A stretch of 64,000 nt of DNA from a virus (taxonomy: Duplodnaviria > Caudoviricetes), in the IMG/VR virus record IMGVR_UViG_3300021431_004083, positions 96,001 through 160,000 of that record; one strand, written 5' to 3'. A model generated the notes under the pieces. It had not been told where the DNA came from, did no database searches, and saw only the letters and a program-made list of their open reading frames with translations. Numbering within the stretch: the stretch's first letter is position 1; every line of letters begins with the position of its first letter. A program made the translations under genes and the position numbers. Below are positions 18,648 to 19,830 of this stretch, one piece after another.

Positions 18648-18780
18648 AAGGAGCTCTTTCTGTCAGCTCCTTCACCGATAAGTCGGCTATAAAAAAACTC
18701 GACAGAACATGTCAGACAGTTGGCGGACCACTTCCTCGTTCCGTCAGCTGTTCTGTACAATAAAAAAGGAGGGCTCGAAC

Positions 18781-19269
18781 ATGCCTGTCTTATTTGTAAA
18801 AAATACCGTAACAGAAAAAACAATCGAGTCCATACTCAAACCTATCAATAGCTTCTGGACATACACAAGCCTTACGGATGTTGTGCAATCCAACGATAGC
18901 AGACTCGACAAAGCGCGTGATTTCGCGGCTATCACCTTCACAGACGAAAAAGATTGCGCTTTCATCGCGGACATGCTGATGGCAGAAAACATACAGGTGT
19001 TCCTGACCTTACCCGTCACCGCCGAAAGCACATACACAAACATATCAAACGACAAAAAAGCCAATATATCCTACTGGGACCATCTCGATAATATTGCCGA
19101 GGACTTCGTACAAAACCTTTTGTATGAATGCTATGACAAAGATACACATGCACAAACACCTTTGTCAGAAGAAGACAGGCAATACGTCCTGAAAGCGGCA
19201 CTTGAAGCCGCCATTGAAAAACTGGAAGACCTCAAAAAGGAATTCCCGTTTATGGATATTCCGTCCTAA
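18781..19269 (+). CDS. Hypothetical acidic protein
   Basis: ATG after aaggagg RBS. Confidence 0.7.
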   Translation: MPVLFVKNTVTEKTIESILKPINSFWTYTSLTDVVQSNDSRLDKARDFAAITFTDEKDCAFIADMLMAENIQVFLTLPVTAESTYTNISNDKKANISYWDHLDNIAEDFVQNLLYECYDKDTHAQTPLSEEDRQYVLKAALEAAIEKLEDLKKEFPFMDIPS

Positions 19270-19276
19270 AAAACAT

Positions 19277-19548
19277 ACGAGGGATGTAGGCTTAGAGGCA
19301 GCCATCATCTAAGGAGTAAGACGCCGGGATTGCGTGTAGTGAAGGTCGGGGAAACCGACACAGCGTGCACGCGGTGGTGATGAGAACACTTAAAGCGATA
19401 ACGTGTCGCTAAACGGTATCATCACCATTGTCAATTCGTCGCTGACGAGCACGGCATAGCAGTAATGAGCGACTGTAATCTATCTGCTATTGCGACACAC
19501 CCTACAGTCGGTAAGAGTCTTTTTGGCGTAACAGCACACCTCGTACCA
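19277..19548 (+). ncRNA. 23S rRNA H43-H44 (L11-binding / GTPase-associated centre) mimic RNA with a 208-nt insertion and ACCA 3' end
   Basis: GGATGTAGGCTTAGAGGCAGCCATCATCTAAGGAGT...GCGTAACAGCACAC matches 23S positions ~1055-1104; closed by ACGAGG/CCTCGT + ACCA; no other rRNA sequence in the flanks. Confidence 0.88.
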
Positions 19549-19572
19549 TTATTTCCAAAAAGGAAGGTATTC

Positions 19573-19830
19573 ATGACACGTACTGTGACATATACATGTG
19601 AAGTCTGCGGACGTCAAAGCGGAAGCGCAATTGACATTATAAAATGCGAATGCTCCCATCTTGGAATAACCGTAGACCAACTAAAAGAATGGAAGCTGCT
19701 GAAAGGCGCTGTCCGAATGACAAAAACACATGCAACAACAGAGCAAGTTATTAAAGACGCCATCAAAAATCTGAATGACTTCGAAACAAAACATCAGCTC
19801 ACAGGAAAAACTGTACCCAACCTATGTTAA
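19573..19830 (+). CDS. Small Zn-finger protein (paralog of 23898-24179)
   Basis: YTCEVCG...DIIKCECSHL; aggaagg RBS. Confidence 0.75.
   Translation: MTRTVTYTCEVCGRQSGSAIDIIKCECSHLGITVDQLKEWKLLKGAVRMTKTHATTEQVIKDAIKNLNDFETKHQLTGKTVPNLC

Follow-up and report, generated by a model that had tools for sequence, protein, structure and literature searches.

A GTPase-associated-centre mimic RNA of a jumbo phage probably carries a retained, pseudoknot-bearing domain after U1090 and not an intron

The translation genes known from phages include those for tRNAs, tmRNAs and a few ribosomal proteins. RNA copies of parts of the translation apparatus also occur as the rRNA-mimicking leaders of ribosomal-protein operons and as phage tRNA or tRNA-like decoys. 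Large structured RNAs have variable peripheral domains, such as the expansion segments of rRNA and the peripheral elements of RNase P and group I introns. Known interruptions of such RNAs include the IVS of 23S H25/H45, which are excised by RNase III to give fragmented rRNAs, and group I introns, the smallest of which have a size range that includes 208 nt. To our knowledge, no stand-alone phage copy of an rRNA functional centre has been described. In fungal nuclear LSU rDNA, L1090 and L1094 are group I intron sites (PMC1299323). Within H44 of the GTPase-associated centre (GAC), nucleotides 1095-1098 are ADP-ribosylated by Tre23 (PMC8661411), which provides a precedent for an attack on the GAC rRNA site in bacterial conflict.

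We analyzed a 64,000-nt stretch of DNA (hereafter the window) from a virus record of 251.5 kb with direct terminal repeats, i.e. a jumbo phage. At about 19280-19545 of the window there is a ~265-nt non-coding RNA, which lies between an ORF at 18709-19269 and an ORF starting at 19574. Its neighbourhood is a phage tRNA/tmRNA island with six tRNAs and one tmRNA on the + strand; tRNAs and the tmRNA are found within 1-2 kb of it. The RNA consists of two halves of a GAC mimic separated by a structured insert, and its features are as follows.

19279-19317, + strand: 5' half of the GAC mimic, E. coli ~1053-1090 (top of H42, H43 and the 5' strand of H44), ending in GAGU
19318-19525, + strand: insert of 208 nt, branching from the 5' strand of H44 after U1090
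19318-19322, + strand: 5' strand of P1 (AAGAC), the closing helix of the insert, pairing with 19517-19521 in both MFE and centroid folds
19323-19455, + strand: multibranch subdomain enclosing H1, H2 and H3, from the MFE fold of the insert alone
19323-19326 and 19452-19455, + strand: P2 (GCCG/CGGC), predicted to close the multibranch subdomain
19332-19372, + strand: H1, with an asymmetric internal loop and a GGAA-containing apical loop; both stems covary
19373-19427, + strand: H2, a long irregular hairpin with outer stem GGTGGTGATGA/TCATCACCA, a GAACA/GGUA internal loop and an inner hairpin
19435-19449, + strand: H3 (TTCGTC-GCT-GACGAG), a small hairpin of the MFE fold
19456-19510, + strand: H-type pseudoknot made of stems S1 and S2
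19456-19462 and 19484-19490, + strand: S1 (ATAGCAG/CTGCTAT), from the centroid fold
19470-19477 and 19503-19510, + strand: S2, the pseudoknot helix (CGACTGTA/TACAGTCG), from the MFE fold
19517-19521, + strand: 3' strand of P1 (GTCTT), pairing with 19318-19322
19522-19525, + strand: U-rich linker TTTG joining P1 to the 3' half, invariant in a 12-sequence alignment
19526-19547, + strand: 3' half of the GAC mimic, E. coli ~1091-1108 (GCGUAACAGC loop of H44 and 3' strand of the closing stem)

The Rfam model LSU_rRNA_archaea gave a partial match at 19281-19325 (E=0.001), in which the LSU alignment covers 19281-19317 up to ...CUAAGGAG (...GGAG) and the match is lost beyond this point. When the 208-nt insert was removed, a count by eye gave 4 differences in 52 positions between the joined halves and one genuine metagenomic 23S rRNA; two of these differences make up the compensatory 1082:1086 pair. 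Moreover, GAGU followed directly by GCGUAAYAGCACAC is an exact contiguous stretch in real 23S rRNAs of several lineages. The claim made from the letters alone, that removal of the insert restores the canonical GAGU junction, is thus borne out by 48 of 52 identical positions and by this exact junction. Across the mimics, the 1082:1086 pair covaries (C-G in 35, U-A in 21 and A-U in 2), which indicates that the scaffold keeps the tertiary logic of rRNA. Covariation was also found at 6/6 pairs of the closing stem and at the 1057-59/1079-81 pairs, and GGCGU.A.AGCAC of the 3' half is invariant in the same-type alignment. Mimic position 1061 (window 19291) is A, and the family has U in 84, A in 22, G in 18 and C in 4 members; U1061A is the mutation used to stabilize the 58-nt GAC RNA for structural work. 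G at 1070 is found in real 23S rRNAs of PVC-group bacteria, and A at 1101 in those of Peptococcia, Anaeroplasmataceae, Nitrososphaerota and other lineages; therefore, these seemingly unusual bases of the mimic are natural rRNA variants.

Folded alone, the insert forms exactly P1, P2, H1, H2 and H3, with a z score of -2.76 and equal folding in 1 of 200 shuffles. Its closure by AAGAC/GTCTT, as proposed in the sequence-only reading, was recovered in both the MFE and the centroid fold. Downstream of the multibranch subdomain two stems compete, the MFE taking CGACUGUA/UACAGUCG and the centroid AUAGCAG/CUGCUAU (S1). They cannot nest and therefore make up an H-type pseudoknot together, the 3' strand of which ends 6 nt before P1 in the window. 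P1, the UUUG linker and H44 constitute a three-way junction, in which RNAalifold prefers to pair the last two bases of the linker (UG) with C1102 and A1103. The MFE fold of the full RNA contains an alternative pairing, ACGCC/GGCGU, between the 5' end of the insert and H44; by inspection, it is absent from most relatives and was rejected. The internal loop near the base of the H2 hairpin (window 19380-19386/19414-19418; GAACA opposite GGUA, or GAUA in L007, L014 and L504) resembles the loop-E or bulged-G (S-turn) type, a typical protein-binding motif, and roughly every second same-type relative keeps this loop-E-like motif.

BLAST against phage genomes returned matches to the 5' half only, in jumbo phages of Erwinia, Serratia (BF) and Xanthomonas (XaC1 and XbC2). 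The split design is common to three cultured jumbo phages, namely Serratia BF, Erwinia Kaldavass and Xanthomonas XaC1: an insert of 172-182 nt comes after the 5' half and is followed by UUUG and the other half. Pattern scans of IMG/VR and GTDB genomes extended the family to ~130 distinct members in phage contigs and prophages. All of the ~130 members with the 3'-half pattern have an insert at the identical site, with lengths from 47 to about 370 nt and no gap in the distribution; a case with a 440-nt insert looks like a chance match. A comparison of insert length among homologues, which had been suggested as a check, therefore shows an element of very different sizes at one site that is never absent. 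The first strand of an insert nearly always pairs with the nucleotides directly 5' of the U-rich linker, which is mostly UUUG (84 of 128 end in exactly TTTG after P1, according to a crude P1 finder). This automatic finder detected a P1 of at least 5 bp in 38% of the 128 members versus 19% in the swapped control. It is crude because U-rich tails pair easily, so that the support for P1 comes mainly from the covariation in 12 sequences described below.

A direct search of 2.9 million viral contigs for an insert-free mimic gave no hit except for one chance match inside a coding region, and in bacterial and archaeal genomes the same search found only genuine 23S rRNAs or chance matches. Scans of metagenome and genome contigs with GGCTTAGAGGCAGC... 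mostly returned real 23S rRNAs of the PVC group (with the natural G1070) and no new members. The RNA in the window has all the hallmarks of the family: the two halves (23S 1051-1090 and 1091-1108) with a covarying closing stem, a structured insert after U1090 with a short closing helix and a U-rich linker ending in G, and a location among the tRNA genes of a large phage with expression as a discrete RNA. The family has no match in Rfam 15, and no description of it was found in the searchable literature.

Several other arrangements were observed during these searches. The chromosome of Gorillibacterium timonense contains an uninterrupted, free-standing GAC copy of 73 nt (L051:5664-5736; LSU_rRNA_bacteria 1083-1154, 37.4 bits, E=9e-10), which is intergenic, immediately precedes a 72-aa ORF and carries a changed H44 loop (GCGUUAAAGC). 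This copy may represent a cis-regulatory element or a bacterial version of the mimic without insert. Some members have, besides the obligatory insert, a second variable hairpin right after H43 (after GCAGCCA, about 1076/1077), namely L288, L260, L347, L305, L324, L329, L330/L306, L280 and L343. In addition, many inserts of other types carry a module just before P1, CAC-CC-[short hairpin, often with a GNRA loop]-GGUAAGG (for example L275, L291, L321 and L274). The region at 19496-19516 of the window (...CACACCC-UACAGUCG-GUAAGA) resembles this module, but its middle part pairs in the pseudoknot.

In BLAST searches against the other inserts, the sole sequence-level relative of the insert in the window was L448, a contig binned with a Eubacteriales MAG, which is 97.6% identical. 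The other same-type relatives were recognized by structure (L392, L491, L015, L007, L014, L492, L494, L504, L499, L495 and L359). Inserts of this subtype are 208-274 nt long and have an identical order of elements. In the 12-sequence alignment of the same type, 93.6% of the cells pair, and the covariation score was 0.591 versus 0.176 in shuffles (reached by 0 of 500) and at most 0.12 with slid partners. P1 is paired in 100% of the 12 sequences, with compensatory changes at 4 of its 5 pairs. Both the lower and the upper stem of H1 covary in this alignment, and the H1 apical loop, R-GGAA-N-M, is conserved among same-type relatives. Because H2 and the pseudoknot were one column off register in some rows of the MAFFT alignments, H2, S1 and the pseudoknot were assessed in each sequence separately by helix finding and dinucleotide shuffles. 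In 9 of 10 same-type relatives, the element after H1 is again a long hairpin in the same position, with stems of unrelated sequence, and the inner hairpin of H2 shows a compensatory G-C to A-U change between the window and L448. Equivalents of H3 were found only in L392 and L491, which carry CUGACGAG; in L448, a C to U change in H3 keeps a G-U pair.

Every same-type relative tested (10-11) has S1 and a stem from its loop to a downstream strand at the same position, with unrelated sequences and with the 3' strand ending 2-6 nt before P1. The pseudoknot helix is GAAGAUGU/ACAUCUUC in L392, and two compensatory changes distinguish the close relatives L014 (UUGCUAAG/CUUAGCAA) and L492 (UCUCUAAG/CUUAGAGA). 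The position-constrained pseudoknot score was reached by 0 of 300 dinucleotide shuffles for the window and by 0-16 of 300 for the other sequences, and the three closest structures share the pseudoknot loops L1 (UNAUGAG) and L2 (AUCUAU). As expected of an H-type pseudoknot, a hairpin loop is paired to a single strand further downstream, and covariation maintains each of the two stems. The pseudoknot proposed from the letters alone thus has both stems in place and recurs with different sequences in same-type relatives. The proposed multibranch domain fared less evenly: all of its helices are present in the sequence and in the fold and H1 covaries, but P2 is a prediction only, since the single sharer of its sequence is 97.6% identical. 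As to the suggested comparison of structure among homologues, P1, H1, H2 and the pseudoknot are kept by compensatory changes in ten same-type relatives.

The insert shows no similarity to Rfam families. A match of H2 to YrlB (Y RNA-like; 15 bits, E=5) was rejected as chance. A blastn-short comparison of 11 same-type inserts with 90 real 23S rRNAs revealed no recurrent rRNA position; therefore, the insert is not an rRNA copy at the sequence level. No sarcin-ricin loop (SRL) was found in the insert with up to 2 substitutions, and matches in the window were at chance level. Among the 128 inserts, SRL hairpins of the AGUACGAGAGGA type are present in four, all of which are longer than 310 nt; the regex also hit the 148-nt L303, apparently by chance. 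A hammerhead was considered as well, as CUGACGAG in H3 resembles the CUGANGA box, and was dismissed, there being no other hammerhead elements and no Rfam match.

The stretch is contained in seven animal-gut metatranscriptomic runs, four of which were examined. In run X14, a 263-nt contig corresponds to 19281-19543 with zero differences. In run X6, which comes from a different study, a 276-nt contig corresponds to 19279-19554 at a depth of 42, compared with 3-5 for contigs of the flanking ORFs, i.e. the RNA is ~10-fold deeper; a contig of run X3 also ends at 19554. It follows from these contig ends and depths that the abundant RNA starts and ends at the outer helix of the mimic and includes the insert. 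No joint skipping the insert was found in the assembled contigs of the four runs, a kind of data that drops rare variants and short species and that a ~60-nt spliced product or a minor processed form could escape. Only one contig, a strain variant in run X4, extends 31 nt or more to either side of the 3' junction. Runs X3, X4 and X6 also contain contigs of other GAC mimics, which match window 19284-19317 and have a different upstream sequence or insert start (TCTTGTACTTCTG...); thus, several phages in these guts express such RNAs. On the + strand, neither a sigma-70-like promoter nor an intrinsic terminator was found in the flanks of the mimic RNA, and so it is probably trimmed from a longer transcript. 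The flanking ORFs are common only to the window and L448, and hence there is no conserved partner gene among same-type relatives. A domain search of the phage genome detected no homologue of TROVE/Ro60, Ribosomal_L11 (uL11) or RelA_SpoT. The ORF directly downstream of the RNA (19574-19830) encodes a small zinc-ribbon-like protein with CxxC...CxC spacing, and its conservation is limited to the near-identical L448.

Taken together, the insert is very probably a constitutive, retained, pseudoknot-locked peripheral domain of a phage GAC-mimic RNA and not an intron. The intron reading was worth testing because L1090 and L1094 are real group I sites and because the insert can be drawn with a U before it and a G at its end. 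These boundaries are real and are shared by nearly all relatives, but U1090 of the rRNA and the unvarying final base of the linker explain them equally well. It is hardly credible that a self-splicing group I-like intron sits at L1090 and yields an active ~60-nt mimic upon removal. Such an intron would agree with the family-wide U and G at the ends and, at 208 nt, with the sizes of the smallest group I introns, and its position is documented in fungal nuclear LSU rDNA (PMC1299323). However, cmscan of 19150-19700 against Rfam at E<=10 detected neither Intron_gpI (RF00028) nor any other ribozyme family, and no guide in the form of a complement of GGAGU was found in the 5' part of the insert, in agreement with the earlier remark that no group I P1 or P4-P6 is evident. 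Moreover, the two ends of the insert are base-paired to one another directly at the 5' boundary, unlike those of group I introns; inserts of the family share only P1 and UUUG and go down to 47 nt, a size too small for a ribozyme; no insert-free allele was found; and the RNA contigs are unspliced, abundant and end at the outer helix of the mimic, without joints. A P1 that abuts the 5' boundary, a UUUG linker and continuous lengths are the design of a three-way junction and not of an intron. The group I reading is therefore already largely refuted, and the earlier proposal of an excisable element that switches the mimic on is not supported. Excision by a host or phage nuclease without religation, which would leave a two-piece mimic held by pairing, is also very improbable. 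Fragmented rRNAs of such an origin are known, and this RNA, in whose flanks neither a promoter nor a terminator was found, is probably a processing product of a longer transcript in any case. Nevertheless, RNA contigs cross both junctions at high depth, P1 has only 5 bp and is far shorter than an RNase III substrate, and structural selection acts on the interior of the insert, as would not be expected if this RNA were thrown away.

Readings in which the insert is retained but has another role also have to be weighed. It might be a neutral expansion segment, i.e. functionless filler that drifts and is tolerated because the site is permissive. Although the huge variability of the family in length (47 to about 370 nt) and sequence and the lack of similarity to any Rfam family or rRNA would suit this idea, we consider it improbable, as there is no member without insert, five helices and the pseudoknot are kept within the subtype by compensatory changes while the sequence has diverged almost fully, and recurrent modules such as the SRL copies of the largest inserts are found in other subtypes. 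Slightly harder still to sustain is an autonomous functional RNA for which the GAC fold is no more than a stable clamp, either as a ligand or protein sensor gating the mimic or as a new ribozyme. The compact pseudoknotted fold, the L1 and L2 loops conserved in the three closest structures, the CUGANGA-like CUGACGAG of H3 and the ACGCC/GGCGU alternative pairing could all be read in its favour. On the other hand, no ribozyme family matches, the alternative pairing is missing in most relatives, CUGACGAG occurs in only three sequences without other hammerhead elements, and the invariant part of the family is the mimic halves and not the insert. A bolder extension, which we regard as unlikely but far from negligible, is that the insert confers specificity on a new class of phage "ribosome-site decoy" RNAs, which would trap a host translational GTPase, a stringent-response factor or a GAC-directed defence toxin. 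In such RNAs, the invariant ends would copy the uL11/GTPase-associated centre, and the variable domain would add a second, lineage-specific surface, namely an SRL copy in the largest members and the pseudoknot-locked three-hairpin body here. Both surfaces together might rebuild enough of the factor-docking site off the ribosome, and the diversity of the inserts would then reflect an arms race.

Under the preferred reading of a retained peripheral domain, the insert would most likely serve as the structural and partner-binding module of a free-standing stalk-base decoy. The domain may tie the two halves of the mimic together, may give the RNA a compact, nuclease-resistant body and may present a partner with a surface that differs between lineages. 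As a whole, the RNA would imitate the stalk base as a decoy away from the ribosome, and its target could be a factor that recognizes this site, such as uL11, a translational GTPase, or a GAC-directed toxin or enzyme. The earlier suggestion of a domain displayed on the L11-binding scaffold is in line with this reading, given that the insert is part of the abundant RNA, is obligatory throughout the family and has a structure conserved by covariation.

The comparative and RNA-level evidence indicates that the piece interrupting the rRNA copy is part of the working molecule, and that the family is modular, with an invariant core and an obligatory, structured and lineage-specific side domain. New in this study are the retention of the insert at the RNA level, the definition of a pseudoknot-bearing subtype by covariation and the absence of insert-free alleles. 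Since the family has cultured members (Serratia phage BF, Erwinia phages including pEa_SNUABM_12, and Xanthomonas XaC1), direct tests are possible. If true, the decoy idea would represent a new viral way to interfere with or to protect the host translation apparatus.

Compared with known systems, the flanks of the insert reproduce the GAC of 23S rRNA (H42-H44, E. coli 1051-1108; the 58-nt domain that binds uL11 and thiostrepton), being 48/52 identical. In contrast to the 23S domain, the phage mimic is free-standing, phage-encoded and about 60 nt in size, and it is always interrupted after U1090, where real rRNAs in the searched collections have no domain. The fungal L1090/L1094 group I introns (PMC1299323) share the rRNA position, the preceding U and the G at the end of the insert; unlike them, the insert has no catalytic core or guide, is unspliced in the RNA data, is obligatory rather than sporadic and may be as short as 47 nt in relatives. 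The SRL-bearing members of the family have the same scaffold, insertion site, P1 with UUUG and retained insert, and differ from the RNA in the window in having inserts of more than 310 nt with AGUACGAGAGGA-type hairpins, whereas the insert in the window has no SRL. Like peripheral domains and expansion segments, the family combines a conserved core with a lineage-specific module at one site that is conserved in structure and variable in length; in contrast to them, the phage module is never absent and, in some lineages, includes a copy of a second ribosomal site, the SRL. Finally, the mimic resembles rRNA-mimicking leaders and tRNA decoys in copying a piece of the translation apparatus that would bind a partner away from the ribosome, but, unlike those leaders, it is not cis-regulatory and is a discrete, abundant RNA that ends at its own outer helix within a tRNA/tmRNA island.
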